From Candidatus Nanopelagicales bacterium (GTDB lineage: Bacteria > Actinomycetota > Actinomycetes > S36-B12): a stretch of DNA of 50,324 bases. A program made the translations under genes and the position numbers. The stretch's first letter is position 1. Each line of letters starts with the position of its first letter. This document shows, one piece after another, positions 31,718-50,324 of this stretch. Where the stretch lies: positions 1 to 50,324 of the forward strand of contig JBPCSL010000115.1 of assembly GCA_051007175.1 (NCBI GenBank), read 5' to 3'. Under the pieces are notes generated by a model, which saw only the letters and a program-made list of their open reading frames with translations, was not told the DNA's origin and did no database searches.

Positions 31718-31721
31718 CGCG

Positions 31722-35525: not shown

Positions 35526-35541
35526 GACGGTTCCTCCTGAC

Positions 35542-36333
35542 TCAGGTGATGCGCAGGTTGATGGGGCCGAGGCGGTCGAAGTCGGCGCGGAAGACGTCTC
35601 CGCGCTGGAAGGGGACGGCGGCGTGCAGGGCACCGGTCATGATGATGGCCCCTGCGGGCAGGGTGACGCCGAGGGGGTGCAGCGTGTTGGCAAGCCAGGC
35701 CACGGCGTCGATGGGGCCTCCCAGCGCGGCAGCACCGGCCCCCGTGGCGACGAGATCGCCGTTGCGCGTGAAGACCATGCCAATAAGGGCAGGATCGAAG
35801 TCGCCGAGCGGCACGACCCGGCTGCCGAAGGCCACGGCACCATTGGAGGCCAGATCGGCGATGGTGTCGGGGAGCGCGATCTTCCAGTCGGCGATGCGGC
35901 TGTCCACGATCTCCAGGGCCGCCACGAGGCCACGGGTGGCGGCCCAGGCCTCGGCGGCGCTGCAGTAGGGGCCGGACAGGGGCGCGTCCAGCACGACGCA
36001 GATCTCCGCCTCCATGCGGGGCGCAATGTAGCGGTCTGCCGGCACATCGCCCCCGTCGGAGTAGACGGTGGACCCGAGGACTGGTGCGTAGTCGGGCTGG
36101 TCGACTCCCAGCATCTCCTGCATCGGCTTGCTGGTGAGGCCGAGCTTGTAGCCGATGATCGAGTCGCCTTCCGCCAGGAGACCGGCGACCAGTCCCTGCT
36201 GGACGGCGTAGGCATCCTCCGCCGTCATCCCCGGGAATCGGTCGGTCAGCGGCGCAATCGGCACCCGTGTGCGGCGCGCCTCGAGGAGCGCACCCGACAT
36301 CTCGCGCACATCGTCGGGATTCGGTCGTGTCAT
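35542..36333 (-). CDS. 2-oxopent-4-enoate hydratase (XylJ/MhpD-like)
   Basis: 263 aa, AYAVQQGLV...GYKLGLTS...EAEI. First gene of the xylJQKIH-ordered block. Confidence 0.75.
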
Positions 36334-37172
36334 GGCATGCCCTCTCCGGAGGTGTGTCGTCGGGACGTGCGGGACTCGCGATAGCCGAGCCGGCGGCTCA
36401 CCGCCAGGGCGGCCTCGACCGCCGGCCGCGAGAAGCGGCGCAGCGAGTCGCTGCCCAGCCGCTGCACCGGGCCGACGATGGACAGGGCGGCGATGACCTC
36501 GCCGCGGTCATTGCGGATAGGCGCGGCAATCGAGGCCGCACCGAGCTCAGACTCATTGACGTTCTCGGCCCAGCCCTGGCGGCGGACCTCGGCGAGCGCG
36601 GTCCGCAGGGCGCGCGGGTCCGTGATCGTGTAGGGGGTCCTGCGCACGAGCTTCCATCCGCGCAGCGTGGCCTCGAGCTCATCCTCGTGCAGGTAGGCGA
36701 GGAGCAGCTTCCCCGTGCTCGTGCAATGGGCGGCATTGCGATGACCAACGCGGCCGAAGAGGCGCAGGGTCTGGGGACTCTCGCGGCGCTCGACGTAGAC
36801 GACCTCGCGGCCGTCGAGGACCGCCACCTGCACGGTCTCGCGCGTGGCATTGCGCAGCTGGTCGATGACGGGAGAGCAGGCCTCGTGAAGGTCGTTGTGG
36901 AGGGCGACGGATGCGCCGAGCTCGTACATGGCCAGGCCGAGCCGGTACGCGCCGGTCTCTCGGTCCTGCTCCAGAAGCCTCTCCTCGGCCAGGGTGCTCA
37001 GCAGCCGGTGTGCGGTGCTCTTGCCGATGCCGAGACGGCGGGAGAGCTCGGTCACCCCGATATCGCGATCGCCGTGGCCGAATTCCTTGAGCAGGCGGGC
37101 GGCATTGCGCACGCTGGACAGAGTGGAGCGGGAGGAACGAGCGTCGGACGAATCGCCGCGCACGCCCGTCAC
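36330..37172 (-). CDS. IclR-family transcriptional regulator
   Basis: wHTH VTELSRRLGIGKSTAHRLLSTL plus a C-terminal IclR effector domain. GTG start overlaps the upstream gene stop (GTGA). Stop overlaps the hydratase ATG (ATGA). Confidence 0.85.
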   Translation of the reverse strand: MTGVRGDSSDARSSRSTLSSVRNAARLLKEFGHGDRDIGVTELSRRLGIGKSTAHRLLSTLAEERLLEQDRETGAYRLGLAMYELGASVALHNDLHEACSPVIDQLRNATRETVQVAVLDGREVVYVERRESPQTLRLFGRVGHRNAAHCTSTGKLLLAYLHEDELEATLRGWKLVRRTPYTITDPRALRTALAEVRRQGWAENVNESELGAASIAAPIRNDRGEVIAALSIVGPVQRLGSDSLRRFSRPAVEAALAVSRRLGYRESRTSRRHTSGEGMP

Positions 37173-37852
37173 CGTGCACCGCCTGGTCTGAGCGCCTCCA
37201 CGGCGCGACGCCGCAGTGCGTCGGAGTCCACGGGGTCGTCGATGTCGATGTCAGGCAGCGACGGGACCAGCTGCCGGGCGAGGAGCGCCTGGGCGCGTGG
37301 CAGCGAGGCCACGTAGGCACCGTGCCACTCGTCGATGAGTGCCTCGCGGCCCGGTGCGTAGGCGCGCAGCGCTTCGAAGTCGCGATCCGCAGCGGCGTGG
37401 GCATGGGCGAGCCCCGTGCCTCCGTGGGCTGCATGGTGGGGAGTGAGGGAGGAGCCGGGGGGCACCGCGAGGTGGTAGAGCACCGTGCGGAGGCCGAGCT
37501 GCCGGCGCACCTCGTCGAAGGCAGGCTGCTCGGTCTCGTCGATGAGGCCGAGCGGCGGGATGATCACGGGATCGAAGAACCGCACCGTCCACGACAGGTC
37601 CTCCAGGGAGTCCTCGAGGGCGATCTCGGGGCCCTGGGGGGCAGGCAGCGGCTCGGCGGTCCCGATGACGTGCAGGACCCGGACCCCGACCGCGGCCACG
37701 GAGAAGTGGCCCGCGCGTACGAGGGGCAGGCGCCCTCGGTCTCCTGGCGGGAGGAGCCGCGCGGCATCGAGGTAGGCCGCATGCAGGCCGCGGACATAGG
37801 CCGCCATGGCCGTGCGCATGGCCTCGGGGCCGGTGGCATCGGGGGCAGGCAC
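37169..37852 (-). CDS. Hypothetical protein, first gene of the IclR/meta-cleavage operon
   Basis: 227 aa, high GC3, translationally coupled to the IclR gene. His-rich segment HHAAHGGTGLAHAHAA. No family recognised. Confidence 0.55.
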   Translation of the reverse strand: MPAPDATGPEAMRTAMAAYVRGLHAAYLDAARLLPPGDRGRLPLVRAGHFSVAAVGVRVLHVIGTAEPLPAPQGPEIALEDSLEDLSWTVRFFDPVIIPPLGLIDETEQPAFDEVRRQLGLRTVLYHLAVPPGSSLTPHHAAHGGTGLAHAHAAADRDFEALRAYAPGREALIDEWHGAYVASLPRAQALLARQLVPSLPDIDIDDPVDSDALRRRAVEALRPGGAR

Positions 37853-37954
37853 GGCGGCAATCTAGCAGGGCTATCCCGCAGAGGGGAACGCCGTCCTTCC
37901 ATGCGGGACGTGGGGCGCCTAGCGTCAGCGCATTCCGAGTGCGAAGGAGAAGGC

Positions 37955-38863
37955 ATGGGGATCCTGCGGCTGGCGCACGTTGATCTCACGGTGACCGACC
38001 TCGACCTGACGACGGCGTACTACACCGAGGTCATCGGGATGATCGAAGCCGGACGCGACGAGGACTCGGTCTACCTCAAGTGCTGGGACGAGACTGACCA
38101 CCACTCGCTGCGCCTGCGCTACGCCCCCCGCGTGGGCTTCGACCTCATGTCGTTCCGCGTCGAGCGCGAGGACGACCTCGCGGACCTCGAGAACATCGTG
38201 TCGCGCTATGGCTACCCCGTGGAGCGCGTGAGCAAGGGCGAGTCGGTGGGTCAGGGTGAGTCCATCCGCTTCGATACCCCGTCGGGCCACGTCATGGAGC
38301 TCGTGTACGACGTGGAGAAGACGGGGCGCCTCACGGGCACGGTGAATCCCGCACCGTTCGTCGAAGGCCTCAAGGGGATCGCTCCTCCGCGCATGGACCA
38401 CCTGCTCGTGAAGTGCGAGGAAGTAGGCGAGGCCACGAAGTTCTACACCGACATCCTCGGCTTCCGGGTGACCGAGCAGCTCCTCGACGGCAACGGGCAC
38501 CAGACGGCCACATGGATGGAACGCTCGCACTCGCCTCACGACCTGGCCCTGGTGTCCGGGCAGAACGGCGGCTTCCACCACTTCGCCTACTGGCTCGACG
38601 ACTGGGATCACGTGCGCCGGTCAGCGGACATCCTGGCCTACAACGGCATCTCCGTCGATGTCGGGCCCACGCGCCACGGAATCACTCGGGGCAACACCAT
38701 CTACTTCTTCGATCCGCTGGGGACACGCAACGAAGTCTTCACTGGCGGATACCGACCAGACCCGGATTTCCCGACCATCACCTGGACGGAGGACAACGTG
38801 GGACGCGCTGTCTTCTACTACGAGGGCGAAGTCAACAACCGATTCATGACGGTGCACACCTGA
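37955..38863 (+). CDS. Extradiol (catechol 2,3-type) dioxygenase, copy 1
   Basis: ATG 37955 after GAAGGAGAAGG. Two-domain type I VOC extradiol enzyme. Metal ligands in MDHLLV, HHFAYW and RNEVF. Confidence 0.85.
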   Translation: MGILRLAHVDLTVTDLDLTTAYYTEVIGMIEAGRDEDSVYLKCWDETDHHSLRLRYAPRVGFDLMSFRVEREDDLADLENIVSRYGYPVERVSKGESVGQGESIRFDTPSGHVMELVYDVEKTGRLTGTVNPAPFVEGLKGIAPPRMDHLLVKCEEVGEATKFYTDILGFRVTEQLLDGNGHQTATWMERSHSPHDLALVSGQNGGFHHFAYWLDDWDHVRRSADILAYNGISVDVGPTRHGITRGNTIYFFDPLGTRNEVFTGGYRPDPDFPTITWTEDNVGRAVFYYEGEVNNRFMTVHT

Positions 38864-39774
38864 TGGGCATCCTGCGTCTCTCGCACGTCGAGATCAAGGT
38901 CCCTGACCTCGAGCTGGCCACGGCGTACTACACGGAGGTCGTGGGCCTCATTGAGACCGCGCGCACTCCGGATCGGGTGTACCTGAAGTGCTGGGACGAG
39001 CAGCAGCACCACTCGCTCATCCTCGACTACGACCCCACGCACGGCCTCGCCTACATGAGCTGGAAGGTGGAGCAGGCCGCGGACCTCGATCACTTCGCGG
39101 CTCGCCTCGAGTACGCCGGAATCGGCGTCGAGCGACTGGCGGGGGATGAGATCGGCCCAGGTGGCGGGGAGGCGATCCGCTTCACCACGCCGTCGGGGCA
39201 CCAGATGGAGCTCATCCACGGCATGGACCAGGTGGGCAACCTCCTGCCCCTCTTCAATCCGCCGCCCAAGCCCCTCAACCTCGTGGGCGTCGCCCCGCCG
39301 AGACTCGACCACGTCTTCATCACGGTGGAGGACGTCAAGGGGATGACCCGCTTCCTGCAGGACATCCTGGACTTCCACCTCACCGAGCAGGTGGTCGGCG
39401 ACGACGGCTTCCAAATCGCCACCTGGCTCGAGGTATCGCACTCCTCCCATGACATCGCGCTGGTGACCGGTCCCGACGGTGGCCTGCACCACTTCGCCTT
39501 CTGGGTGGACGACTGGAACGACATTCGCGATGCCGCCGATGTCATGGCCTACCACGGCGTGCGCATCGACACGAATCCCACGCGCCACGGCGCGACACGC
39601 GGCAACTGCCTGTACTTCTTCGATCCCGCGGGCAATCGCAACGAGGTCTTCACGGGCGGCTACTGGACCGATCCCGATGACGAGCCGGTGACCTGGACCG
39701 AGGGCGAGATGGGACGCGCGCTCTTCTACTACGACGGGGTCGTGGACCAGCGATTCCTCACGGTCCACACCTAG
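38863..39774 (+). CDS. Extradiol (catechol 2,3-type) dioxygenase, copy 2 (tandem paralogue)
   Basis: TGATG stop/start overlap with copy 1. Same length and motifs (LDHVFI, HHFAFW, RNEVF). Roughly half the residues are identical to copy 1 by eye. Confidence 0.85.
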   Translation: MGILRLSHVEIKVPDLELATAYYTEVVGLIETARTPDRVYLKCWDEQQHHSLILDYDPTHGLAYMSWKVEQAADLDHFAARLEYAGIGVERLAGDEIGPGGGEAIRFTTPSGHQMELIHGMDQVGNLLPLFNPPPKPLNLVGVAPPRLDHVFITVEDVKGMTRFLQDILDFHLTEQVVGDDGFQIATWLEVSHSSHDIALVTGPDGGLHHFAFWVDDWNDIRDAADVMAYHGVRIDTNPTRHGATRGNCLYFFDPAGNRNEVFTGGYWTDPDDEPVTWTEGEMGRALFYYDGVVDQRFLTVHT

Positions 39775-39784
39775 GAGGTCGACG

Positions 39785-40897
39785 ATGACGACGGATGCCG
39801 GACCGGACACGGGCAAGGTCGCCCTGCCCCGCACGGAGCGCCCCGACGCCCCGGCGTACCTCCAGCGCTACAAGGAGCGGCAGGCGAGAGGCTCTGCCCC
39901 GCAGGTGGAGCACGGTGACGAGGGCGACACCACTCCGCTGTATCTGCGTCGATTCCGCGAGCGGCGCGAGGAGGAGAACGCGCTGGAGGCTCCGGTCCCG
40001 CTCTGGGAGGGCGCCGAGCTGAACGCCACGCGGGCGTGGGCCGAGGTCACCAGGACGCGGGAGATCGTGCCGGAGTCCAAGGAGCAGGCGAAGACCGCGG
40101 TCACCGACATCTACTTCGTGCGGCACGGCGAGACCCAGGGCTACTCGACGGAGTCGGGTCTCACGCCGCTGGGCTCCTGGCAGGCGCATCGGCGTGGCCA
40201 GGAGTTCGCGCGACGGGTCATGACGGGCCATCACGTCACCATGGCGTGCGCCGACACCAACCGCGCGCGGCAGACTGCCGAGCACATCCGGCGCGGACTC
40301 CTGGACCAGCTCGTGCTCTTCGGTCGCGACGCCACCGTGGGAGAGGTGACTCCCTACGAGGAGTTCCGCAACTTCCAGGTGGCGACGCCCGACGGCTTCC
40401 GCGATGTCACCCAGGCATTCCGGCTCTACCACTCGACGATGGAGACCTACGAGCGCCACGGACAGGGCGGCCGTCCCACCTGGCTCGTCGAGGTCGATCG
40501 CTTCTGGGGGATCCAGCAGGCCGGAGGAGACCCCATCACCCACTGGCTCACCATGCCCATGCTCACCTTCGAGCCGCCGGTGGCCGCGGTGCGCCGCTTC
40601 TGGGCGGGGCTCATGCGGATCCACCACGAGAACCACGGCCAGACGGTCGTGGTCGCGACCCACTCCGGTCCCATCCGCGCCTTTGCCACGTGGGCGCTCG
40701 GCTACGACCCCGGCGAGCCCTTCAACACGGAGTTCGTGCGCGTCCGACTTCTCGAGGACGGACAGTCCGCCCTCGTGCTCTACCGCAACCGCGTGCAGGA
40801 GGTTGCCGTGCCCGACTTCGACGGCCTCCCCGACTGGTGGGCTGGTCTCGAGGGTCGAGCGCTTCCCATCAACAGGCGCGAAGGGACCCCCGCATGA
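39785..40897 (+). CDS. Histidine phosphatase (phosphoglycerate-mutase-like) family protein with ~105-aa charged N-terminal extension
   Basis: RHG motif IYFVRHGETQGY at residue ~113, second His in VVATHSGPIRA. The extension has high GC3 and an internal repeat. Stop overlaps the next gene's ATG (ATGA). Confidence 0.75.
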   Translation: MTTDAGPDTGKVALPRTERPDAPAYLQRYKERQARGSAPQVEHGDEGDTTPLYLRRFRERREEENALEAPVPLWEGAELNATRAWAEVTRTREIVPESKEQAKTAVTDIYFVRHGETQGYSTESGLTPLGSWQAHRRGQEFARRVMTGHHVTMACADTNRARQTAEHIRRGLLDQLVLFGRDATVGEVTPYEEFRNFQVATPDGFRDVTQAFRLYHSTMETYERHGQGGRPTWLVEVDRFWGIQQAGGDPITHWLTMPMLTFEPPVAAVRRFWAGLMRIHHENHGQTVVVATHSGPIRAFATWALGYDPGEPFNTEFVRVRLLEDGQSALVLYRNRVQEVAVPDFDGLPDWWAGLEGRALPINRREGTPA

Positions 40898-41970
40898 GCG
40901 TTGTCATGTGGTTCGAGAGCTACTGGCCCGGTATGAAGAACGAGGTGGGCGGCAAGGCCGCGAGCCTCGGCGAGATGACAGGCGCCGGCCTGCCCGTGCC
41001 GCCGGGGTACGCGGTCACCACGGCGGGTTATCGCGCGGCACATGACGCAGCAGACCTCGATGCGACGCTTGCCCGGCTGCTCCATGGCCTCGACATCGCC
41101 GATACGGGGCAGGTGAGTGCCGTGTGCTCGGAGATCCGGGAGGAGATCCGGGGGATGCCCCTGCCCGCCGATGTCGAGGATGAGATCCGGTCGGCGTACG
41201 CCACCCTGTGCCGCAAGTGCGAGGTGGAGGACCTTCCCGTCGCCGTGCGATCCTCCGCCACCTCCGAGGACTCCCCGGATGCGTCCTTCGCGGGAGAGCA
41301 CGACACGTATCTGTGGATTCGGGGTGCCGACGCCGTCGTCGATGCGGTGCGCCGGTGCTGGGCGAGCCTCTTCACCGACCGAGCCACCTGCTATCGCGTC
41401 GAGATGGGCTACGAGCACCGGTCGGTCGAGATGGCGGTCGTGGTCCAGAAGATGGTCCGTCCCGTCTCCGCGGGGGTGGCCTTCACCCTCAACCCGGCCA
41501 ACGGCGATCGCTCGCAGGTCGCCGTGGACGCGGCCTGGGGCTTCGGCGAAGCGGTCGTCTCGGGCGAAGTCACCCCCGATAACTTCCTCGTCGACAAGGT
41601 GATGCTCGCCGTGAGCAAGCGCGAGATCAGTCACAAGGCCCACGAATACCGGCTCACGGATCACGACTCCGTGGAGAAGGCGGAGGTCGACCCGGACCGC
41701 GCCGACGCCCCGTGCCTCACGGACGCCCACCTCAAGGCCATCGCGGTCCTGGCCAAGACGGCCGAGAAGCACTACGGCTGCCCCCAGGACATCGAATGGG
41801 CCGTCGACGCTGACCTGCCGGAAGGAGAGAACGTCATCCTGCTGCAGGCACGCCCCGAGACGGTGTGGAGCAAGAAGCCGCGAGAGTCGGTGACGGGCTC
41901 GGCCGACAAGAACCCCATGTCGAGCATTGTCTCGACCTTGATGAATCCGCTGTACGCACGCGACAAGTAG
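40894..41970 (+). CDS. PEP/pyruvate-binding (PPDK_N, ATP-grasp) domain protein; ATP-binding subunit of a split dikinase (PpsB/CreH-like)
   Basis: 358 aa. VGGKAASLGEMTGAGLPVPPGYAVTT, VAVRSSATSEDSPDASFAGEHDTYL, ASLFTDRATCYR, QDIEWAV..., the N-terminal nucleotide-binding module of PEP synthase. No His swivel domain. Confidence 0.8.
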   Translation: MSVVMWFESYWPGMKNEVGGKAASLGEMTGAGLPVPPGYAVTTAGYRAAHDAADLDATLARLLHGLDIADTGQVSAVCSEIREEIRGMPLPADVEDEIRSAYATLCRKCEVEDLPVAVRSSATSEDSPDASFAGEHDTYLWIRGADAVVDAVRRCWASLFTDRATCYRVEMGYEHRSVEMAVVVQKMVRPVSAGVAFTLNPANGDRSQVAVDAAWGFGEAVVSGEVTPDNFLVDKVMLAVSKREISHKAHEYRLTDHDSVEKAEVDPDRADAPCLTDAHLKAIAVLAKTAEKHYGCPQDIEWAVDADLPEGENVILLQARPETVWSKKPRESVTGSADKNPMSSIVSTLMNPLYARDK

Positions 41971-42031
41971 GCAAGAGTAAGCACACCCCAGTCGGTGCCC
42001 ACGGGCCCGCTACAAGTGGAAGGAACGACAG

Positions 42032-43840
42032 ATGGCCGATCGGTTCCCCAGCCCGTTCGACATCGAGACGCCCCCGGGCGCCGAGGGTTGGCAGGAGATG
42101 TACGTCTACTCCTCGCTGTTCAGCGAGTCGAGACGAGATTTCGAAGAGTCCATGTTCTGGTTCCAGGACGGCGTGCACTGGCCCAAGGTTCTGACGCCCT
42201 GGGATGCATCCTTCTACGAGTTTGCCATCGCGTCGCTGTCGCAGTACAACACCCGGCACCTGCAGGTGCCACCGGCGAATGGCATCGCTGCACGCATTCT
42301 CAATGGTTACGCCTATCTGACGCCGGTGCCCGCTGACCCAGCGACCATCGAGACTCGAGTGGCCAACTTCATGGATCGCGCGGGCTTCTACTTCATGAAC
42401 TGGAATGACCTCTACGACAAGTGGATGGTGAAGATCCGCGACCTGGTCAAGGAGCTTGAGGCTGTCAACTTTGAGGTGCTCCCCGAGATTGAGGATGCCG
42501 ATGAGGTCGTGAAGTCCGGGGCAGGCTTGGGTTCGGGGCAGCGCATCCAGGAGAGCTACCGCACGCTTCTCGATCTTGGCCTGAAGTTGTGGAATTACCA
42601 CTTCGAGTTCCTCAACCTGGGCTACGCCGCCTACCTCGACTTCTTCGGCTTCTGCAAGCAGGCCTTCCCCGGCATCCCCGACCTCGCTATCGCGAAGATG
42701 GTCGCGGGCGTGGAGGTCGACCTCTTCCGTCCGGACGAGGAGCTCAAGCGGCTCGCCCGCGTCGCACTCGAGTCCGGGGTGGCCGATGCCTTCGCCGTCG
42801 GGGACGTGGAGCAGACCTGCGAGATCCTCAAGGGCTCCGATGCCGGACGCGCCTGGATCGCGTCCTTCCAGGAGTCCGCCGAGCCGTGGTTCAACTTCTC
42901 CACGGGCTCAGGCTTCTACCACTCCGACAAGATCTGGATCGAGAACGTCGAGATCCCCTTCGACTTCATCAACGACTACATCGTCAAGCTGCAGTCGGGT
43001 GAGGACCTCGCACGTCCCATGGAGGCGATCCGTGCCGAGCGTGATCGCGTGGTCAACGAGTACTCCGAGCTGCTGGCCACCGACGAGGACCGCGAGGCCT
43101 TCCAGTCCAAGCTGGGCCTGGCCCGCGTGGTGTTCCCCTACGTGGAGAACCACAACTTCTACGTGGAGCACTGGAGCCATTCGGTGATCTGGCGCAAGAT
43201 GCGCCAGCTCGGCGAGGTCTTCGTCAAGGAGGGCTTCTGGAGCGAGCCCAACGACATCTTCTACCTCAAGCGCACCGAGGTCGAGGACGCACTGTGGGAC
43301 TACTACATTTCCTGGGCTACTCCGGAGCCGGCGGCAGGCCCAGGACGCTGGCCGGCCATCATCGAGAAGCGCAAGGGCATCTGCAAGGCGCTGAGCACCT
43401 GGAAGCCCGTGCCGGCCCTGGGCGCTCCTCCCGAGGTGATCACCGAGCCCTTCACCGTCATGCTGTGGGGCATCACCTCCGACAGCGTGAGCTCGTGGCT
43501 GGGCGGGGGCGATGCCAAGGAAGGAGAGCTCCGGGGCATGGCGGCATCGCCCGGACTCGTCGAAGGCCCGGCCCGGGTGATTTTCTCGCCCGAGCAGATC
43601 GGCGAGGTGCAGGAGGGCGAGATCCTGGTCGCCCCGCTCACCGCCCCCTCCTGGGCGCCGATCTTCGGCAAGATCCTGGCCACGGTCACCGACACCGGCG
43701 GGATGATGAGCCACGCGGCCATCGTCTGCCGCGAGTACGGCGTGCCGGCAGTCACCGGCACCGGTTTCGCCACGACCAACATCAAGACCGGGGACCGGAT
43801 CCGCGTCGACGGCAACAACGGGGTCGTTACCACCCTGTGA
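42032..43840 (+). CDS. PEP-utilising-enzyme mobile (swivel His) domain protein with large N-terminal domain; phospho-carrier/substrate subunit (PpsA/CreI-like)
   Basis: 602 aa. C-terminal GMAASPGLVEGPARVI...ILVAPLTAPSWAPIF...TDTGGMMSHAAIVCREYGVPAVTG, catalytic His codon at 43712-43714. RBS GGAAGGA. Confidence 0.8.
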   Translation: MADRFPSPFDIETPPGAEGWQEMYVYSSLFSESRRDFEESMFWFQDGVHWPKVLTPWDASFYEFAIASLSQYNTRHLQVPPANGIAARILNGYAYLTPVPADPATIETRVANFMDRAGFYFMNWNDLYDKWMVKIRDLVKELEAVNFEVLPEIEDADEVVKSGAGLGSGQRIQESYRTLLDLGLKLWNYHFEFLNLGYAAYLDFFGFCKQAFPGIPDLAIAKMVAGVEVDLFRPDEELKRLARVALESGVADAFAVGDVEQTCEILKGSDAGRAWIASFQESAEPWFNFSTGSGFYHSDKIWIENVEIPFDFINDYIVKLQSGEDLARPMEAIRAERDRVVNEYSELLATDEDREAFQSKLGLARVVFPYVENHNFYVEHWSHSVIWRKMRQLGEVFVKEGFWSEPNDIFYLKRTEVEDALWDYYISWATPEPAAGPGRWPAIIEKRKGICKALSTWKPVPALGAPPEVITEPFTVMLWGITSDSVSSWLGGGDAKEGELRGMAASPGLVEGPARVIFSPEQIGEVQEGEILVAPLTAPSWAPIFGKILATVTDTGGMMSHAAIVCREYGVPAVTGTGFATTNIKTGDRIRVDGNNGVVTTL

Positions 43841-43848
43841 GGACCGTC

Positions 43849-43884
43849 CTTCCGGGAAGGGGACCAAAGTCCCCTTCCCGGAAG
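43849..43884 (+). promoter_or_regulatory. Perfect 15-bp-stem hairpin / double palindrome between the dikinase and the oxygenase gene
   Basis: CTTCCGGGAAGGGGA-ccaaag-TCCCCTTCCCGGAAG. Each arm itself contains the palindrome CTTCC-N-GGAAG. Could be an attenuator/terminator, an RNA-processing site or an operator. Confidence 0.5.
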
Positions 43885-43989
43885 TGGTTCCGCCGGGAGG
43901 AACATCGAACTCCCGGGCGTCCCGCGCAATGCCTAGCGTCTCCCGCACAACCGCTACCGTCTAAGAACTGGAACGTCGGAGGGACCCAC

Positions 43990-45249
43990 ATGCTGACCGT
44001 CGAACAGAACGAGGAGCTCACCCAGGTCGGCCCCGGCACGCCCATGGGCGAGCTGCTGCGTCGGTACTGGTACCCCATCGCCTTCGAAGAGGACTTCGAC
44101 GGCGTGCCCACCAAGACGGTCCGTCTCCTCAGCGAGGACTGGACGCTCTTCAAGACACCCAAGAGCGGCAGGTATGGAATCGTTGCCGAGCACTGCCCGC
44201 ACCGCAGCGCGTCGCTGACGTACGGCGTGGTGCACGAGGACGGCATCCGCTGCGGCTACCACGGCTGGAAGTGGGACTTCGACGGCAACTGCCTCGAGCA
44301 GCCGGCCGAGGCCGACAACCAGAACTTCCGCGATCGCGTGAAGCAGAAGGCGGGCAAGGCCGAGGTCATGGGCGGCATGATCTGGGTGTATGTCGGACCC
44401 GATCCTGCGCCGGAGCTCCCTCGCTTCGATGTGTTCGTCATGGACGGCGTGAAGGACTGCGGCTACACGACACTCCCGTGCAACTGGCTGCAGATCATGG
44501 AGAACTCCGTAGATCCGCACCATGTCGAGTGGCTGCACGGCTATTACTTCAACTTCATGGGGGAGACCCAGGGCTTCGAGGCGCCGAAGGCCTTCCAGAA
44601 GAAGCACCTTAAGACCGGCTTCGAGGAGATGGAGTGGGGCATTCTCAAGCGCCGGGTGCTCGAGGGCGGGACCGAGGACAATGACGACTGGAAGGTCGGC
44701 CATCCGCTCGTCTTCCCCTACTTCATGCGCGTCGGAGGCGCGGGCATCGACCAGATGCAGATTCGCGTCCCCATCGACGACACCACGACGTGGAAGCTCT
44801 TCTACTCGAATCATGCGCCTACCGGCGGACAGTGGGAGCCGCAAGACAGGCCCGTGTTCTACGAGTACCTGTGGCGCGACGAGCAGGGCCGCTTCATCAC
44901 CGACTACATCGAGGGCCAGGACATCATGGCCTGGGTGAGCCAGGGCGCCGTCACCGACCGGACCCAGGAGCACCTCGGCCGTTCGGATGCCGGCGTGGCG
45001 ATGCTGCGCAAGATGTTCAAGGAGAACATGAAGCGCGTGCAGAACGGCGAGGATCCGCTCGGCACCGTGCGCGAGAAGCACGAGATCATCGTGCTGCCGT
45101 GCGAGCGAGACAAGTTCGGGGCCGAGCGCGAGTTCGCTCAGGCCTGGATCACCGGCGGCTCGTCGCGCTACAGCCCGATCAAGGAGCAGCTGCTCGACTT
45201 GCATGAGCAGGCGTGGGCCGACCGCGAGAAGGCGGGAGCGAGTGCCTGA
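43990..45249 (+). CDS. Rieske non-heme iron oxygenase, alpha-only type (phthalate/KshA/LigXa-like class)
   Basis: RBS GGAGGGA. Rieske CPHRSASL...CGYHGW. Mononuclear Fe motif E-x3-D-x2-H-x4-H = ENSVDPHHVEWLH. No beta-subunit gene adjacent. Confidence 0.85.
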   Translation: MLTVEQNEELTQVGPGTPMGELLRRYWYPIAFEEDFDGVPTKTVRLLSEDWTLFKTPKSGRYGIVAEHCPHRSASLTYGVVHEDGIRCGYHGWKWDFDGNCLEQPAEADNQNFRDRVKQKAGKAEVMGGMIWVYVGPDPAPELPRFDVFVMDGVKDCGYTTLPCNWLQIMENSVDPHHVEWLHGYYFNFMGETQGFEAPKAFQKKHLKTGFEEMEWGILKRRVLEGGTEDNDDWKVGHPLVFPYFMRVGGAGIDQMQIRVPIDDTTTWKLFYSNHAPTGGQWEPQDRPVFYEYLWRDEQGRFITDYIEGQDIMAWVSQGAVTDRTQEHLGRSDAGVAMLRKMFKENMKRVQNGEDPLGTVREKHEIIVLPCERDKFGAEREFAQAWITGGSSRYSPIKEQLLDLHEQAWADREKAGASA

Positions 45250-45535
45250 CGATGCTGTCTCGGATCGGGTGGGAGTCTCCTTGAGCGAGCTCCCACCCGA
45301 TCCGCATCGCCTGCCGCCGCCCGGTGCCTGGTTCGCCCCGGATGCCGAGCGCCACCTGCTCGACCGGCCAAAGTTCTGCCCCATGTGCGCGGCGAGCATC
45401 GAGGTGCATGGCGGGATCTCCACCGAGTACTGGATGGCCGATCAGCGCGTCTTCATGACCTGGTGCGGGGAGTGCGGCTGGTTCGGCGACATCGTGCGCT
45501 ACGACATGGTGACCATCACGGAGGAGGAGCACTGA
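45242..45535 (+). CDS. Small Zn-ribbon protein, unknown function
   Basis: GTG 45242 overlaps the oxygenase stop by 8 nt. CPMC...(25 aa)...CGEC. High GC3. Start uncertain (the ORF is open from 45203). Confidence 0.5.
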   Translation: MPDDAVSDRVGVSLSELPPDPHRLPPPGAWFAPDAERHLLDRPKFCPMCAASIEVHGGISTEYWMADQRVFMTWCGECGWFGDIVRYDMVTITEEEH

Positions 45536-46173
45536 CCGCTCTCGTCTTCGACTTCGGCGGTCCCGTCCTCCTCACGCCCTTCGAGCTTCGTGCCGTCGGC
45601 GAGCGGTCCATGGGACTCCCGGCCGGCACCCTGGCATGGACCGGCCCCTTCGACCCGGCCGCCGACGAGGACTGGCGCGTCTTCCAGGCCGGGGGCATGA
45701 CTGAGCGTGACTACTGGGCACGTCGCTGCGCGGAGTTCCACGAGCTCACCGGTGAGCCTGCGGAGATGCCCGCATTCATGGTGCACCTCTACGACGGCTC
45801 GGAGGACGAGATCGTCCGCCCCGGGGCGACCCGGCTCATTGCCGATGCCAAGGCGGCGGGGCTGCCTGTCGGCGCCCTCACCAACGACCTCACGGCGTTC
45901 CACGACCAGTCCTGGATCGACCGGATGAGCGTGATCGACTCCTTCGATGTCCTCGTCGACGGTCGGCGCGACGGGGTGATGAAGCCCGACCCGGCGGCTT
46001 ACCTGCTCGTCGCCGAGCGCCTGGGCGTGACCCCGCAGGAGTGCGTATTCATTGACGACCAGCCCGGTAATCTCGCGGGAGCTGAGGCTGTCGGGATGCT
46101 GCCGGTCTACCTGGACCCGGTCGATCCCGAGCCCGCCTTCCAGGAGGCGCGGCGCCTGCTCGGCCTCGATTGA
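45532..46173 (+). CDS. HAD-superfamily hydrolase (start codon uncertain)
   Basis: Motif I VFDFGGPVL, motif II LTND, motif IV FIDDQPGN. Candidate CTG start at 45532 has a CTGA overlap and follows GAGGAGGAG. Alternative starts are GTG 45463/45472 or ATG 45385, which overlap the Zn-ribbon ORF by 64-151 nt. Confidence 0.7.
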   Translation: MTALVFDFGGPVLLTPFELRAVGERSMGLPAGTLAWTGPFDPAADEDWRVFQAGGMTERDYWARRCAEFHELTGEPAEMPAFMVHLYDGSEDEIVRPGATRLIADAKAAGLPVGALTNDLTAFHDQSWIDRMSVIDSFDVLVDGRRDGVMKPDPAAYLLVAERLGVTPQECVFIDDQPGNLAGAEAVGMLPVYLDPVDPEPAFQEARRLLGLD

Positions 46174-46182
46174 GGAGTGCAC

Positions 46183-47538
46183 ATGGCACGAGCTCTGAGG
46201 GTGGCGATCGTGGGCTCCGGCCCCTCGGGCATGTACGCCGCCGACGCCCTGACGGCGCAGGACGAGATCCCAGTGTCCGTCGACATCATCGACAAGCTCC
46301 CGACTCCCTTCGGCCTCGTGCGATATGGCGTCGCGCCGGACCACCTCAGCATCCGCTCGGTGCGCGACACCCTCGACAAGATCCTCGACAAGCCGAATGT
46401 GCGCTTCCTCGGCAATGTCGAGATCGGCGCGGACCTCACGCTGGAGCAACTGCGCCAGTTCTATGACGCGATCGTCCTCACCTACGGCGCCTCGCGCGAT
46501 CGCGCACTCGGCATTCCGGGGGAGGGTCTCGACGGTAGCGTGGCCGCCACGGACTTCGTCAACTGGTACACCGGACACCCCGACATGCCCACGGACGCCT
46601 TCACCGGCTTCTTGTCATCCCGTCGGAGCGTCGCGGTGATCGGAGTCGGCAACGTGGCCGTTGATGTCACCAGGGTGCTGTCGAAGGCTCCTGACGAGAT
46701 CGAGCACACCGACATGCCGGAGCATGTCTTCGCCGCCTTGCGCGCGTCGGGGATCACCGATGTGCATGTCATCGGCCGCCGCGGGCCGGCGCAGGCCACC
46801 TGGACGACGAAGGAGCTGCGCGAGCTCGGGGAGCTCGCGCAGGCCCAGGTGATCGTGGCCGAGGGCGGCGCGGTCGATGACCCCGCGAGCCAGCGAGCGG
46901 TCGCCGACGACAAGGCGGTCGCTCGCAATGTCGCGGTGATCGAGGAGTGGGGCCAGCGTGCCGACGATGGCCGGAGCCGGCGCATTCACCTGCACTTCCG
47001 CTGCCGACCCGTGGAGATCCTCGGCAGCGAACGCGTGGAAGGCCTCGTCGTGGAGACGACGGAGGTCGACGCCGACGGCCAGGCGGTGGGCACCGGGGAG
47101 ACCCATGTCATCGCGGTCGACGGGGTGATCAGGAGCGTGGGCTACCGGGGGACAGCGCTCGCGGGCGTCCCCTTCGACGCGAGCCGTCATGTCATCCCCA
47201 ACGCCGACGGCCGCGTCCTCGATGGAGGTGCGATCGTGCCGGGGATCTATGTCGCCGGCTGGATCAAGCGTGGTCCCACGGGGATCATCGGCACCAACAA
47301 GAAGGACGCCGTGCAGACGGTGGCATGCCTCCTCGAGGATGCGGCGGATCCGTCATCCTGGACGGCGACGAGTCCTGATCCCTCTGCCGTGGACGACGCG
47401 CTGGCGGTGATCCCCGTAGTGACGACCGCGGGATGGCGCCGCATCGACGAGGCGGAGCGGGCGCTGGGCGCCGCTCGCGGCCGTGATCGCACGACGCTCC
47501 ACGACCATGACGCCCTGATGGAGGCGGCCCGGCCCTAA
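46183..47538 (+). CDS. fprA: Ferredoxin-NADP+ reductase, adrenodoxin-reductase type (FprA-like)
   Basis: RBS GAGGAG. VAIVGSGPSGMYAA, KLPTPFGLVRYGVAPDH, second Rossmann VAVIGVGNVAVD, GWIKRGPTGIIGTNK. Confidence 0.85.
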   Translation: MARALRVAIVGSGPSGMYAADALTAQDEIPVSVDIIDKLPTPFGLVRYGVAPDHLSIRSVRDTLDKILDKPNVRFLGNVEIGADLTLEQLRQFYDAIVLTYGASRDRALGIPGEGLDGSVAATDFVNWYTGHPDMPTDAFTGFLSSRRSVAVIGVGNVAVDVTRVLSKAPDEIEHTDMPEHVFAALRASGITDVHVIGRRGPAQATWTTKELRELGELAQAQVIVAEGGAVDDPASQRAVADDKAVARNVAVIEEWGQRADDGRSRRIHLHFRCRPVEILGSERVEGLVVETTEVDADGQAVGTGETHVIAVDGVIRSVGYRGTALAGVPFDASRHVIPNADGRVLDGGAIVPGIYVAGWIKRGPTGIIGTNKKDAVQTVACLLEDAADPSSWTATSPDPSAVDDALAVIPVVTTAGWRRIDEAERALGAARGRDRTTLHDHDALMEAARP

Positions 47539-48383
47539 GCGGCGATCCAGTCCGACCAGGGCTCGGGCTCGGCGCCGCACGACGCGGGACGCGTGCCGCC
47601 GGGCACCTGCGTCATGCGCACGGGATCGCAGCCGGCGAAGCGCACCGTCACGGACCCGTCGGGCTCGTCGGTGAGCATCAGACTGCCCGGGTCGGGGGCA
47701 CAGCCCTGCCCGAGGAGATGAATCTCGGCGGCCTGGGCCGCGGGGGGAAGTGATGTTCGACCGCGCATCCAGGGCACGGACCAACGCGAGAGGGATGCAT
47801 CTGCCATCCCGCCATGGCCGTCATCCGACACGAGCCGGCGGGCGACCTCTGCGGTGAGCCGCCCGTAGGCGACACCCTGTCGCACGTCGAGAGCCGTCGG
47901 GGCGAAGCGATGTCCGCCCAGGTGCGAGCACTCCCAGACGAGCGGACTGTCGACGGCCTGGGCCAGCGCGCGCCCGTCGAGACCGCAGCACAGGTCGCGA
48001 CGGGCGTTGGTGCAGATGACGAGTCGGGGTGCCTCCGGATCGGCGGCGAGGAGCCCTTCCGGCGGATGCGCGGGATCCCAGGCGAGCAACTCGCGAGGAT
48101 CGGCCACGACGGCCACGCGCGGCTGAGGATCCCCGGGGAGCGCCCCCGCCACCCAGATACGCACAGGCCCTGACGGGTCCGCCGCGGGATGCCGACCGGT
48201 ACGGCGTACGAGCAGGACACGTCGCTCCGGCGTGCTCGCGAGATCGCGGACGGCCTCCACTCGGCAGGTCGCGAGGGGATCGCGGCCCCACGGCCCCGGG
48301 ACGTCGATGAGCCACCACCATCGGGCCCGCGGGGCCGTGCCGGCCATGACCTCGCGGGCGGCGAGGGGTGAGCAGCGGGTCAT
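47535..48383 (-). CDS. Sucrase/ferredoxin-like (thioredoxin-like [2Fe-2S]) family protein
   Basis: CTNARRDLCCG...CSHLGGHRFAP pattern. ATG 48383 overlaps the parC-like stop (ATGA). Its stop overlaps the fprA stop by 3 nt (CTAA). Confidence 0.65.
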   Translation of the reverse strand: MTRCSPLAAREVMAGTAPRARWWWLIDVPGPWGRDPLATCRVEAVRDLASTPERRVLLVRRTGRHPAADPSGPVRIWVAGALPGDPQPRVAVVADPRELLAWDPAHPPEGLLAADPEAPRLVICTNARRDLCCGLDGRALAQAVDSPLVWECSHLGGHRFAPTALDVRQGVAYGRLTAEVARRLVSDDGHGGMADASLSRWSVPWMRGRTSLPPAAQAAEIHLLGQGCAPDPGSLMLTDEPDGSVTVRFAGCDPVRMTQVPGGTRPASCGAEPEPWSDWIAA

Positions 48384-50324
48384 GGGCCCGACACCGAGCC
48401 CAGGGGCGCCGCGAGCGGGACCCCGGAGGCATCGCGCTTGTCGGTGGGGGCGGGGAGCTCGACGGGCATGCCCGACGGGCTGGACCCGCGCGCAGGGCCC
48501 GGGCCGGCCCACGCGAGCTGCAGGGCATCCTCGCCGCGCAGGAACCGATGGCCGCGCACTCCGGACGTGCCGCGGCCCTTGGCGGGGAACTGGGACAGCG
48601 GCGTGACCTTGACCGAGCCGCCGGCGGTCCCGGGGAGTGCATCTAGGGATCCCGCGACCGTGACGAGGACGGCATCGGGCGATCCCATGGGGATCGCGCC
48701 GCAGTAGACGACGGAGGCGCCGCCGGAGAGTTTGATGCCGGCCATGCCCGCGGCACCGCGACCCTGCACGCGCACCGCCGATGCGGGGAATCGCAGCACC
48801 TGGGCATCGGAGGAGACGAGCACGATCTCGTCGGCGTCCGTGGCCTCGCATGCGCCCACGACCTCGTCGCCGTCGTCGAGATTGATGATGTCCCAGGCAT
48901 CCTTCGAGCCCGGAGCCTCGATGGCTGTGCGCTTGACGGTGCCGCGCTTGGTGCCGACGAGGAGGATCGCGGGAGGCTGAGTCACGTCGACCAGGCCGAG
49001 CACGCGCTCGCCCGCGGGAAGGTCGATGAGTGCGCCGAGCGGGGCGCCGCCCGCAAGGGAAGGAGCTTGCGCGGTCGTCGGGAGGGCCGGCAGGTCGACC
49101 ACGGAAAGACGCAGCGCTCGGCCTCGCGAGGTGATGAGGGCCACGCTTCCTCGCGTGGTCGCTGTCGTGCTGGCGACGATGACGTCGTGGCTCGTGCGCG
49201 GACCCTCGCGGCCGATATCGGTCCCGGCCGTGCGGGCGATGAGCCCGGTGCCGGACAGCATGACCCGGCAGGGTGCGTCCGCGACCTCGAGTGGCACATC
49301 GGGGAGCGCTGCGGCGCCGGAGTCCTCGAGCAGCACGGTGCGCCTCGGCGTCGCGTGCTCTTCCGCCGCGGCGAGGAGCTCATCGGCGATGGCCGTGCGC
49401 AGGAGCGCCTCGTCCTCGAGGAGGGCGGTGAGGCGGGTGATGGTGTCGCGCAGCTGGGAGCGCTCCTCCTCCAGCTCGATGCGCGAGAACTTGGTGAGCC
49501 GTCGCAGGGGCATGTCGAGGATGTAGGACGCCTGCTCCTGGCTTAGGTCGAAGACCGACATGAGGCGCTCGCGCGCCTGCCCGGCGTCGTCGCTCGAGCG
49601 GATCACCTCGATGACCTCATCGATGTCGAGGATGGCGACGAGCAGTCCGTCGACGAGGTGCAGACGATCACTGGCCCGCCGGCGCCGGAACTCGCTACGA
49701 CGGCGTACGACGTCCAGGCGATGCCCGACGAAGACCTCGAGTTGCTCGCGCAGGCCCAGCGTGCGCGGCTCGCCGTCCACCAGGGCCACGGCGTTGATGT
49801 TGAAGGCTTCCTCGAGCGGGGTGAGCCGGTAGAGCTGGGTCAGCAGCGCCTCGGGGTTGACGGAGGGGGCCACCTCGATGACGAGCCGCAGCCCGTGCTG
49901 TCCGTCGGTGAGGTCGACGATGTCGGAGATCCCCTGCACCTTCTTGGCCGAGACGAGTTCCTTAATGCGCTCGATGACGCGCTCGGGCCCCACGCCCAGC
50001 GGGAGCTCTGTCACGACGATGCCCCGCCGGCGCGGGGTGACCTGCTCGATACGGCAGGTGGCCCGCATGCGGAAGGAGCCTCGCCCGGTGCGGTAGGCAT
50101 CGCGGACGCCGTCGAGCCCCACGATGGTGCCCCCGCCGGGAAGGTCGGGCCCGGGGACGAAGCGCATGAGCTCGTCGTCGGTGGCCTCGGGATGCAGCAC
50201 GAGATGGCGCGCCGCGGCGACGACCTCGCCGAGGTTGTGCGGCGCCATGCTCGTGGCCATGCCCACGGCGATGCCCGAGGCGCCGTTGACGAGGAGTGCG
50301 GGGATGGCAGCCGGCAGGACCTGG
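48380..50324 (-). CDS. parC: Type IIA DNA topoisomerase subunit A (ParC-like / GyrA paralogue), N-terminus outside window
   Basis: Frame stays open to the window edge (…[24 protein letters not shown]…), so the ORF-track Met at 50266 is internal. Includes the C-terminal beta-pinwheel region. Confidence 0.85.

Follow-up and report, generated by a model that had tools for sequence, protein, structure and literature searches.

The DNA analyzed here is a 50,324-nucleotide stretch, referred to throughout as the window, which comprises positions 1 to 50,324 of the forward strand of contig JBPCSL010000115.1 in the Candidatus Nanopelagicales bacterium assembly GCA_051007175.1; the system in question is a gene cluster in which a two-component dikinase is linked to a Rieske oxygenase. 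On the forward strand, two genes for XylE-type catechol 2,3-dioxygenases (37955–38863 and 38863–39774) are followed by genes for a branch 1 histidine phosphatase (HisP, 39785–40897; His_Phos_1, 61 bits), a 358-aa dikinase ATP-grasp subunit of the PpsB/CreI/HpeI type (DikI, 40894–41970; PPDK_N, 379 bits) and a 602-aa dikinase subunit of the PpsA/CreH/HpeH type that carries the substrate-binding region and the swivel-domain His (DikH, 42032–43840; PEP-utilizers, 86 bits; PRK08296, 814 bits). Beyond a structured intergenic region (43841–43989) lie, on the same strand, the genes for an alpha-only Rieske non-haem iron oxygenase of the phthalate family (43990–45249; Rieske, 57 bits; LigXa_C, 53 bits), a 97-aa Zn-ribbon-like small protein with four conserved Cys residues and no Pfam or NCBIfam family match (45242–45535), a subfamily IA hydrolase of the HAD superfamily with a CTG start codon (45532–46173; Pfam Hydrolase, 70 bits; TIGR02247, 78 bits, below the cut-off) and an FprA-type, adrenodoxin-reductase-like NADPH–ferredoxin reductase (46183–47538).

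An earlier reading, made from the sequence alone, had described seven same-strand genes running from the histidine phosphatase to the reductase, and Pfam and NCBIfam searches confirmed all seven with the domains ascribed to them. The boundary of the unit had been drawn too narrowly: the co-directional unit comprises nine genes from 37955 and includes both catechol 2,3-dioxygenases. Similarly, the statement that the genes are mostly coupled by overlaps holds for the ATGA junction between HisP and DikI, but the coupling is not uniform, with gaps of 61 nt before DikH and 149 nt before the Rieske gene. The functional unit also takes in the two dioxygenases, the Zn-ribbon partner and a conserved protein encoded at 37169–37852. 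We interpret the cluster as an aerobic, ATP-dependent funnel that would lead from a small monocyclic phenol, through an aryl-phosphate intermediate, to a catechol, a reading to which we assign a probability of roughly 0.58. It is built on observations of the kinase family, the class of the oxygenase, the catechol-cleaving enzymes and the co-inheritance of the set with the dikinase.

DikI and DikH are assigned to the PpsAB/CreHI/HpeHI family as a phenolic dikinase of two components, and not as a phosphoenolpyruvate (PEP) synthase. DikI is a separate ATP-grasp (PPDK_N) subunit of the ~40 kDa class, as in the PpsAB, CreHI and HpeHI dikinases, and shares 51% identity with Azoarcus KH32C PpsB and 53% with a CreI-like protein of Rhodococcus ruber. 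It also matches the 387-aa chain 9goj_A with 273 bits; its length and this match lead us to equate the chain with the crystal structure of HpeI in PMC12167813, even though the PDB entry bears the title 'Phosphoenolpyruvate synthase'. The C-terminal swivel domain of DikH contains the catalytic His within TDTGGMMSHAAIV, which conforms to T/SxxGGxxxH and has Met at position −2 to the His, not the regulatory Thr of PEP synthase. Phenolic dikinases carry T/SxxGGxxxH with Met at −2, and HpeH has a fold like that of rifampin phosphotransferase (RPH) (PMC12167813).

Over its full length, DikH is 48.1% identical to PpsA in the Azoarcus KH32C ppsABC-ppcBDAG cluster, 52.6% identical to CreH-like proteins of the R. 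ruber and R. oxybenzonivorans cre-type clusters, and 44% identical to an Hpe-type protein adjoining a biotin carboxylase in a Rhizobium cluster, the PpsA-, CreH- and Hpe-type comparators being assigned by gene context and not by assay. The Rhodococcus cre-type clusters used in this comparison contain a P450, HD-domain proteins, a short-chain dehydrogenase/reductase (SDR) and an aldehyde dehydrogenase. HpeH, CreH and PpsA share ~45% pairwise identity (PMC12167813), and the values of 44–53% obtained for DikH therefore place it in the same family. In a distance tree, the Rieske-linked DikH proteins form a clade of their own (59–90% internal identity) that is sister to the Cre type. An AlphaFold model of DikH with a predicted local distance difference test (pLDDT) score of 80 gave rifampin phosphotransferase (5fbu, 5fbt, 5hv1) as its only significant full-length fold match (E 3e-14, TM 0.6, ~620 columns), and outside the swivel domain the fold resembles this enzyme only. 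The sequence-only reading had recognized the pairing of a ~40 kDa ATP-binding subunit with a ~70 kDa His-carrying subunit as the architecture of PpsB/PpsA and CreI/CreH, and identity, motif and fold all bear this out: set against PpsAB, CreHI and rifampicin phosphotransferase, the proteins group with the PpsAB and CreHI types, and DikH takes the RPH fold. The activity predicted for DikHI is the phosphorylation of a phenol through a phospho-His (ATP + phenol → aryl phosphate + AMP + Pi).

The current database names, 'pyruvate, water dikinase' and 'phosphoenolpyruvate synthase', together with a score of 356 bits for DikI against a PEP synthase model, of which only the N-terminal third is covered, would fit a split PEP synthase or PPDK serving gluconeogenesis from the pyruvate of the meta pathway. 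We rejected this reading and regard its probability as close to nil. A Pfam search of DikH did not find the PEP/pyruvate-binding TIM-barrel domain (PEP-utilizers_C), and the scores of the kinase proteins against the NCBIfam PEP synthase and PPDK models all fall far below the cut-off. The fold shared with RPH only, the Met in place of the regulatory Thr two residues before the catalytic His (PMC12167813) and the full-length identity of 48–53% to the PpsA and CreH types point in the same direction. By domains, scores, identity and tree, the two proteins do not cluster with genuine PEP synthases or PPDKs, an outcome that would have been fatal to the phenolic assignment.

A genome scan with the Rieske protein retrieved 80 loci at 74–95% identity, and the counts reported below cover those loci whose flanks allow the respective test. 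The loci belong mostly to metagenome-assembled genomes (MAGs) of freshwater Actinomycetota, many of them labelled Candidatus Nanopelagicales, and their cultured hosts include Longivirga aurantiaca, Micromonospora sp., Nocardioides zhouii and N. speluncae; hundreds of assemblies and MAGs of freshwater and soil Actinomycetota contain Rieske homologues at 63–95% identity. The genes for dioxygenase 1, dioxygenase 2, HisP, DikI and DikH precede the Rieske gene in this order in 49 of 50 loci, and the Zn-ribbon and HAD genes follow it in all 69. The gene order is kept even at 64–67% Rieske identity, in an Acidimicrobiia MAG and in another lineage. This in-order recurrence in nearly all of the 80 related genomes is far beyond chance. 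The neighbourhood of dikinase, Rieske oxygenase, histidine phosphatase and HAD protein is accordingly conserved across Actinomycetota.

A second, paralogous module was found in Pseudonocardia bannensis (locus L091, 1307–8838), where genes for a Rieske oxygenase, a Zn-ribbon protein, a DxGG-type HAD protein and an SDR are divergent from those for an RPH-like dikinase pair and a Zn-dependent alcohol dehydrogenase (ADH). Identities to the window proteins are 56% for the Rieske oxygenase, 30% for the Zn-ribbon protein, 41% for the DxGG-HAD and 26% for the dikinase H subunit, and the module contains no histidine phosphatase. This second type is conserved in soil metagenome contigs (L096, L100, L103 and L108), of which L108 shows the order DikH–Rieske–small–DikI on one strand, and it resembles a version of the Cre route of side-chain oxidation built on a Rieske enzyme. 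Kinase and oxygenase are thus found linked in two dikinase subfamilies and in three different gene orders, and this is the main argument that the oxygenase would act on the product of the kinase. Adjoining the Pseudonocardia cluster, an open reading frame at 15828–16361 of L091 contains an in-frame TGA in LAD*GSCTSCS and may encode a UGSC-type selenoprotein or its Cys homologue.

The oxygenase carries the CPHR/CGYHGW Rieske centre (CxH...CxxH) and the mononuclear-iron motif DxxHxxxxH in the form ENSVDPHHVEWLH, and a domain search of the cluster and divergent-operon genes found no beta-subunit-like gene near it. Among solved structures it comes closest to phthalate dioxygenase 7fjl (166 bits), to which it is ~30–35% identical over the N-terminal 190 residues. 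The phthalate family typically binds anionic aromatics and holds both ring dioxygenases and demethylases or monooxygenases. The protein reaches no curated NCBIfam threshold, those of the O-demethylase models included, and its LigXa_C match is confined to residues 307–363 (~57 residues); the JGI name given to homologues, '5,5'-dehydrodivanillate O-demethylase', is an automatic KO assignment. GTG 45242 is the most likely start of the Zn-ribbon gene, which would then overlap the Rieske stop codon and which accompanies the oxygenase gene in both module types.

Over residues 4–440 the reductase matches Mycobacterium tuberculosis FprA (PDB 1lqt) with 326 bits, in agreement with its earlier identification as an adrenodoxin-reductase-type FprA. 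In 43 of 61 loci the HAD gene is followed on its 3' side by the gene for an FprA-type protein, in place of which L001, L076 and L085 have one for an FNR-Fer2 reductase. Because non-orthologous reductases fill the same position in relatives, the reductase appears tied to the oxygenase; a reductase always accompanies the set, and its type varies by lineage. A Rieske-type [2Fe-2S] ferredoxin of ~125 aa, which the sequence-only reading had placed in the electron chain, is indeed encoded at 32236–32613 on the reverse strand (Pfam Rieske, 51 bits; NCBIfam MocE/AndAb-like ferredoxin), and a homologous protein is encoded close to the cluster in L001, L023, L026, L059, L076, L082, L084 and L085. In N. 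speluncae (L085, 1119–2351, reverse strand) and Micromonospora sp. (L076, 1100–2296, reverse strand), the ferredoxin and an alpha/beta hydrolase resembling meta-cleavage hydrolases form a single open reading frame. The fusion suggests that the ferredoxin may work in the ring-cleavage part of the pathway and not with the Rieske oxygenase, for example by reactivating the dioxygenase in the manner of XylT.

Both dioxygenases are identified from their sequences as bona fide catechol 2,3-dioxygenases. Their genes are joined by a TGATG overlap and the two paralogues are ~52% identical. Each exceeds the TIGR03211 equivalog cut-off of 320 bits (374 and 359 bits) and matches XylE 1mpy (266 and 230 bits, respectively), and both keep the His/His/Glu iron ligands and the equivalents of His199, His246 and Tyr255; for dioxygenase 1 the iron ligands and catalytic His and Tyr residues were aligned with 1mpy, and the second copy was checked by eye.

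Upstream of the dioxygenases, a control region (37853–37954) with the 9-mer CCTAGCGTC at 37918–37926 separates them from a divergent operon on the reverse strand. In the order of transcription, this operon encodes a conserved 227-aa protein (37169–37852), an IclR-family regulator resembling the PcaR/PcaU/PobR type (36330–37172; HTH_IclR and IclR_C), an FAH-family protein whose best match is the 2-oxopent-4-enoate hydratase DmpE (35542–36309; TIGR03220, 250 bits, cut-off of 409 not reached), an acetylating acetaldehyde dehydrogenase of the DmpF type (34614–35525; AcetDehyd-dimer; TIGR03215, 416 bits, above the cut-off), a 4-hydroxy-2-oxovalerate aldolase of the DmpG type (33589–34617; HMGL-like and DmpG_comm; TIGR03217, 503 bits, above the cut-off) and an FAH-family protein whose best match is the 2-oxo-3-hexenedioate decarboxylase DmpH (32810–33565; Pfam FAA_hydrolase; TIGR03218, 261 bits, cut-off of 350 not reached). 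The TIGR03211 and Dmp-type models thereby substantiate the two extradiol dioxygenases and the meta-cleavage operon that had been reported as neighbours of the module. The IclR gene is conserved beside the cluster in relatives, and in several of them an equivalent of the DmpH-like gene lies between the Zn-ribbon and HAD genes. The Nocardioides and Micromonospora clusters add an aldehyde dehydrogenase for 2-hydroxymuconic semialdehyde (HMS), a 4-oxalocrotonate tautomerase (4-OT) and an alpha/beta hydrolase, and so encode a complete two-branch catechol meta pathway.

The 227-aa protein, encoded by the first gene of the divergent operon, contains an invariant His-rich motif (YHLAVPPG..LT.HHA.H.GTGLAH.H). 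It matched nothing in Pfam or NCBIfam, and no function was assigned when it was considered as the missing meta-pathway enzyme. Only ~545 homologues were found; they are all unnamed, are all tied to this type of cluster and share seven invariant His residues, and 47 of 48 loci have the gene in divergent orientation. The AF2 model (pLDDT 92) has no fold match in the PDB (best E 0.3). The protein may be a new enzyme or a metal-handling protein.

Two hydrolases accompany the kinase and the oxygenase. In the histidine phosphatase, the motifs RHGET, TNRARQTA and THSGP are invariant among 61 homologues, and RHG, the second catalytic His and the phosphate-pocket Arg residues of branch 1 are all present; the protein has in addition an N-terminal extension of ~105 aa, with a conserved LYLRRFRER motif, and a large insert. 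The HAD gene appears to begin at CTG 45532, overlapping the TGA of the small gene (CACTGACC). Relatives have ATG or GTG at the same position, and in-frame stops in three loci exclude an upstream start (loci concerned in these comparisons: L007, L014, L017, L021, L022, L049 and L054); the CTG is likely to reflect non-canonical initiation or termination–reinitiation. Motif I of the HAD protein reads FDFGGP (45547–45564), with Gly in place of the general acid/base at Asp+2, a replacement that is invariant in 75 homologues, and it is therefore DxG and not the canonical DxD, while motifs II–IV are present. The Pseudonocardia paralogue (L091, 2065–2721) has LDLGG at this position. Thus, of the one or two phosphatases proposed earlier, both genes and their domains are present, but the HAD protein does not have the canonical phosphatase motif: a phosphatase activity is plausible for it and not assured, and it may work by a chemistry unlike that of typical HAD phosphatases.

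The 149-nt spacer between the DikH stop codon and the Rieske start codon (43841–43989) contains a perfect 14-bp GC-rich hairpin (43849–43884; fold z-score −4.0). In a comparison of 12 related loci, compensatory changes preserve the stem at 10 of 13 pairs. The hairpin is followed by the invariant blocks GGTCCCGC, AATCCCTAGCGTCACCCGCAC and CCGGTACCGTCGAGGCACCGG, and the spacer also holds the ribosome-binding site GGAGGGACC; a possible GGTCC:GGACC pairing in the spacer would mask the Rieske ribosome-binding site. An Rfam search with the spacer gave chance-level matches only, no U-tract follows the hairpin, and a terminator scan did not flag it. The element could control translation, or it could be a U-less terminator to which an internal promoter or operator is joined. 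The 9-mer CCTAGCGTC occurs three times in the window (37918–37926, 43932–43940 and 25035–25043) against 0.46 expected, a count reached in none of 100 shuffles. It precedes both the first dioxygenase gene and the Rieske gene, and its TAGCGT fits the actinobacterial −10 pattern TANNNT, which suggests two co-regulated transcription units.

Comparison with characterized pathways demonstrated that the cluster shares only its kinase with Cre, Hpe and Pps, and that the defining features of each of these are absent from it. The Cre system (CreHI, the P450 system CreJEF, the dehydrogenases CreG/CreC and CreD of Corynebacterium glutamicum, and Rhodococcus plasmid clusters) uses the same dikinase family and the same aerobic logic, in which a phenolic OH is phosphorylated, the molecule is oxidized by an oxygenase with redox partners and the phosphate is removed, and it likewise has an IclR regulator. 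Where Cre has a P450, however, the cluster has an alpha-only Rieske oxygenase with a Zn-ribbon partner; its hydrolases are a histidine phosphatase and a HAD protein, whereas CreD is an HD-domain phosphohydrolase; and it contains no P450, HD-domain, SDR, alcohol dehydrogenase or aldehyde dehydrogenase gene, a P450 being absent from all genes of the window. The Cre product passes to 4-hydroxybenzoate and protocatechuate, while that of the cluster would pass to catechol 2,3-dioxygenases and the meta pathway. Because the product goes to catechol meta-cleavage, oxygenation would be expected on or next to a ring carbon and not on a para-methyl group.

The Hpe system of R. rhodochrous GD02 (HpeHI, HpeCBA and HpeD) and the Acv system of Sphingobium SYK-6 also employ this dikinase family; in them the next enzyme accepts nothing but the phosphorylated intermediate, and a HAD-superfamily protein carries out deprotection (PMC9618137, PMC12167813), HpeD being the deprotecting phosphatase of the Hpe pathway (PMC9618137). 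Their middle step is a biotin carboxylase reaction on an acetyl side chain, whereas the cluster has an oxygenase and neither a biotin carboxylase nor a carboxyltransferase; HpeD is NagD-like, whereas the cluster HAD is a subfamily IA DxGG variant, and the downstream routes differ. The anaerobic PpsABC system with its UbiD-type carboxylase (Thauera, Azoarcus) has the kinase family in common and phenol as its substrate. The cluster, in contrast, has no PpsC (CBS) and no UbiD/UbiX, and it has an O2-dependent Rieske oxygenase and extradiol enzymes. The absence of a UbiD-type carboxylase, remarked on in the earlier reading, extends to all genes of the window.

The closest pathway logic is that of aniline dioxygenase (AtdA1-A5/TdnQTA1A2B/NpaA1-A5), in which ATP-dependent glutamylation activates the ring heteroatom, Rieske dioxygenation yields catechol, a hydrolase that reverses the activation limits the activated intermediate, and the genes are clustered with those for catechol cleavage (PMC11335346). 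There, activation is gamma-glutamylation by a glutamine-synthetase-like enzyme and the oxygenase is of the two-subunit alpha/beta type; of the components, only the Rieske fold is homologous. With the phenol hydroxylase/meta operons (dmp, phe, aph), the cluster shares its position upstream of XylE-type and DmpEFGH-type genes and, presumably, the net conversion of phenol to catechol; there, a multicomponent diiron hydroxylase or else a flavin monooxygenase acts without ATP, and the cluster has neither enzyme. The alpha-only oxygenases of the phthalate family (phthalate 4,5-dioxygenase, LigXa, VanA, DdmC, TsaM) share the Rieske centre, the iron motif and the absence of a beta subunit, but the cluster oxygenase is always found with a 3' Zn-ribbon gene and a linked dikinase, and we found no characterized family member so described. 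A full-text literature search found no publication linking a two-component dikinase with a Rieske oxygenase, and no described pathway of this composition, as the sequence-only reading had supposed; subscription-only papers were outside the scope of this search. The HpeHI paper itself calls the dikinase family "relatively unexplored" (PMC12167813).

On the reading that we favour, an ATP-dependent funnel from phenol to catechol, the dikinase would phosphorylate the phenolic OH (ATP → AMP + Pi), trapping the substrate in the cell and adding an anionic handle. The phthalate-family Rieske oxygenase, receiving electrons from NAD(P)H through FprA and a ferredoxin, would then attack the carbon next to the phosphoester, either by ortho-hydroxylation or O-demethylation to a 2-hydroxyaryl phosphate or by ipso/ortho dioxygenation with loss of phosphate. 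Dephosphorylation, or the recycling of aryl phosphate that has not reacted, would fall to the histidine phosphatase, the HAD protein or both. The resulting catechol or catechols would be cleaved by the two catechol 2,3-dioxygenases, and the DmpE/H-like proteins, DmpF and DmpG would take the product to pyruvate and acetyl-CoA, with IclR controlling both halves of the system, perhaps by way of the CCTAGCGTC regions that they share. For the substrate, phenol and cresols are the simplest guess, because the module takes the position of the phenol hydroxylase in dmp-type operons and no side-chain dehydrogenase is present. Catechol is the probable product since both dioxygenases exceed the TIGR03211 cut-off with XylE residues in place and soil relatives add HMS dehydrogenase, 4-OT and a hydrolase. 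The original formula of phosphorylation, oxygenation and dephosphorylation, with a Rieske oxygenase replacing the P450, is thereby sustained in its kinase family, its conservation and its apparent novelty, but the roles given to some components are doubtful.

Several points weigh against this reading. The functional links are all drawn from synteny and homology. The oxygenase has no characterized close relative, leaving its type of reaction to inference; the histidine phosphatase is highly divergent, with no solved relative at E<0.01 in a PDB sequence search; and the HAD protein does not have the Asp+2 general acid/base of canonical phosphatases. Either hydrolase may have a different role. The hairpin and the probable internal promoter divide the kinase half from the oxygenase half. 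The encoded downstream pathway is incomplete, with no gene for HMS dehydrogenase, HMS hydrolase or 4-OT within the 50-kb window, and the fusion described above hints that the ferredoxin serves ring cleavage and not the oxygenation step. Finally, two phosphoanhydride bonds would be spent where ordinary phenol hydroxylases use no ATP, which calls for a rationale; why cells spend ATP on phosphorylation-initiated phenolic catabolism is an open question, for which scavenging at low phenolic concentration is a hypothesis only (PMC12167813).

Among the alternatives, two concern the chemistry of the oxygenase. It might be an ipso/ortho (1,2-) dioxygenase with phosphate as the leaving group, which would convert phenyl phosphate with O2 and NAD(P)H into an unstable 1-phosphooxy-cis-1,2-diol and thence into catechol and Pi, the hydrolases acting as safety valves and not as obligatory steps. 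Aniline dioxygenase acting on gamma-glutamylanilide and phenoxybenzoate dioxygenase are analogous, the former following the same logic down to its activation-reversing hydrolase (PMC11335346), and phthalate dioxygenase, the closest solved relative, is a true ring-dihydroxylating enzyme. Each hydrolase is moreover dispensable somewhere, the HAD gene being absent beside the Acidimicrobiia cluster (L089) and HisP from the Pseudonocardia module, and the altered motif I of the HAD protein would suit a subsidiary role. Both are otherwise strictly kept (HAD, 69/69 loci; HisP, 49/50), however, and together with the translational coupling of HisP to the kinase gene this suggests a core role; no sequence feature separates dioxygenation from monooxygenation in the phthalate family. 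We consider such a loss of phosphate in the oxygenase step doubtful while giving it real weight. Alternatively, the substrate could be a methoxylated phenol such as guaiacol, in which case 2-methoxyphenyl phosphate would be O-demethylated to 2-hydroxyphenyl phosphate and formaldehyde, and the phosphatase would free catechol. Many alpha-only members of the phthalate family O-demethylate anionic aromatics, lignin-derived methoxyphenols are plausible in soil and fresh water, and the LigXa_C match and the JGI name would accord with such a role; but that match covers ~57 residues only, and the NCBIfam O-demethylase models gave none. The window and the relatives inspected contain no genes for formaldehyde handling or tetrahydrofolate, and two catechol dioxygenases, with both meta branches in soil relatives, better fit a mixture of alkylcatechols. 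We judge O-demethylation to be unlikely.

The remaining alternatives alter the substrate of the kinase or dissolve its link to the oxygenase. The homologous synthase of Desulfatiglans anilini reportedly makes phenylphosphoamidate from aniline, so that members of the dikinase family may be able to phosphorylate an aniline nitrogen; on this basis an N-phosphorylated arylamine could be dioxygenated to catechol, mirroring the logic of aerobic aniline dioxygenase, and HisP or the HAD protein could hydrolyze the released phosphoramidate, histidine-phosphatase-type enzymes being able to cleave P–N bonds. DikH, however, is nearest to the phenol kinases of the Cre and Pps types, the cluster contains no nitrogen-assimilation or glutamine-synthetase-like genes, and anilines are an improbable selective force for a cluster so widespread in freshwater and soil Actinomycetota, all of which makes an arylamine substrate very improbable. 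It is likewise improbable, though less remotely so, that the kinase and oxygenase halves are independent neighbours joined by shared regulation or descent, for example a detoxifying or sensing kinase beside an oxygenase that acts on an unphosphorylated acid. The conserved hairpin and probable internal promoter between the DikH and Rieske genes would agree with such independence, as would the fairly close relationship of most of the 80 loci (74–95% identity), whose synteny is partly inherited. The pairing nevertheless persists to 64% Rieske identity in another class and recurs with a different dikinase subfamily (26% identical) and in other gene orders, DikH–Rieske–small–DikI among them, and no enzyme of the cluster besides the oxygenase could use an aryl phosphate. 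We also down-weighted the possibility that the kinase phosphorylates catechol or resorcinol and a 3-phosphooxy-catechol is cleaved to the acyl phosphate of 2-hydroxymuconate. This would explain a DmpH-like decarboxylase in the absence of HMS dehydrogenase, hydrolase and 4-OT, and would supply an acyl phosphate for the PGM-like HisP, but the Nocardioides and Micromonospora clusters carry aldehyde dehydrogenase, 4-OT and hydrolase genes, so that the semialdehyde is evidently formed there; for the freshwater lineage the idea keeps some weight.

The cluster is the right-hand half of a catabolic island of ~15 kb (32236–47538) in a segment of actinobacterial chromosome with a G+C content of ~69%. 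The island is flanked by the topoisomerase IV subunit genes (28276–30402 and 48380–50323), and this placement indicates that the cluster is chromosomal here; a megablast search of the 7.7-kb region against plasmids gave no useful match. Most window genes are of the housekeeping type, including dapF, hflX, lexA, nrdR/nrdJ and the principal sigma factor gene, and among those upstream lie genes for a copper amine oxidase (9741–11621, reverse strand), a flavin-containing monooxygenase (11722–13173, forward strand) and an FAD-linked oxidase (15198–16583, forward strand). Directly adjoining the island, an SbtA-type bicarbonate transporter, a PII-like protein and a beta-carbonic anhydrase are encoded at 30412–32336, and a carbonic anhydrase also adjoins the cluster in L004 (16873–17385); this trio may be only conserved chromosomal backbone.

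Two systems of aerobic phosphorylation-initiated phenolic catabolism, Cre and Hpe, have been characterized, and the funnel proposed here, if true, would be the third and far more widespread, as well as the first to couple such a kinase to a Rieske oxygenase with direct feed into catechol meta-cleavage. If the oxygenase needs aryl phosphates and hydroxylates the ring, it would represent a new class of phenol hydroxylase. We put forward a broader generalization as a possibility of somewhat less than even odds: aryl-phosphate-dependent Rieske oxygenases with a Zn-ribbon partner and a linked dikinase would form a new enzyme class, represented in this cluster by a third, ATP-activated kind of aerobic phenol hydroxylase, possibly with phosphate as the leaving group, that traps and oxidizes very dilute phenolics in widespread Actinomycetota of fresh water and soil, among them lineages that bear the label Candidatus Nanopelagicales; the second type, with its RPH-like dikinase, SDR and ADH, would oxidize the side chains of aryl phosphates, and the 227-aa protein would be a new enzyme or metallochaperone.

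Two orphan protein families and an atypical HAD protein are also placed in a context by the analysis, and the cultured hosts Nocardioides zhouii, N. speluncae, Longivirga aurantiaca, Micromonospora sp. and Pseudonocardia bannensis make the hypothesis directly testable. The reading of phenol-degrading potential from genomes would change, since the hosts would be scored as having no phenol hydroxylase and their kinases are at present named "pyruvate, water dikinase". Such a system would bear on the cycling of terrestrial and phenolic dissolved organic carbon in lakes, and may provide new parts for lignin valorization.

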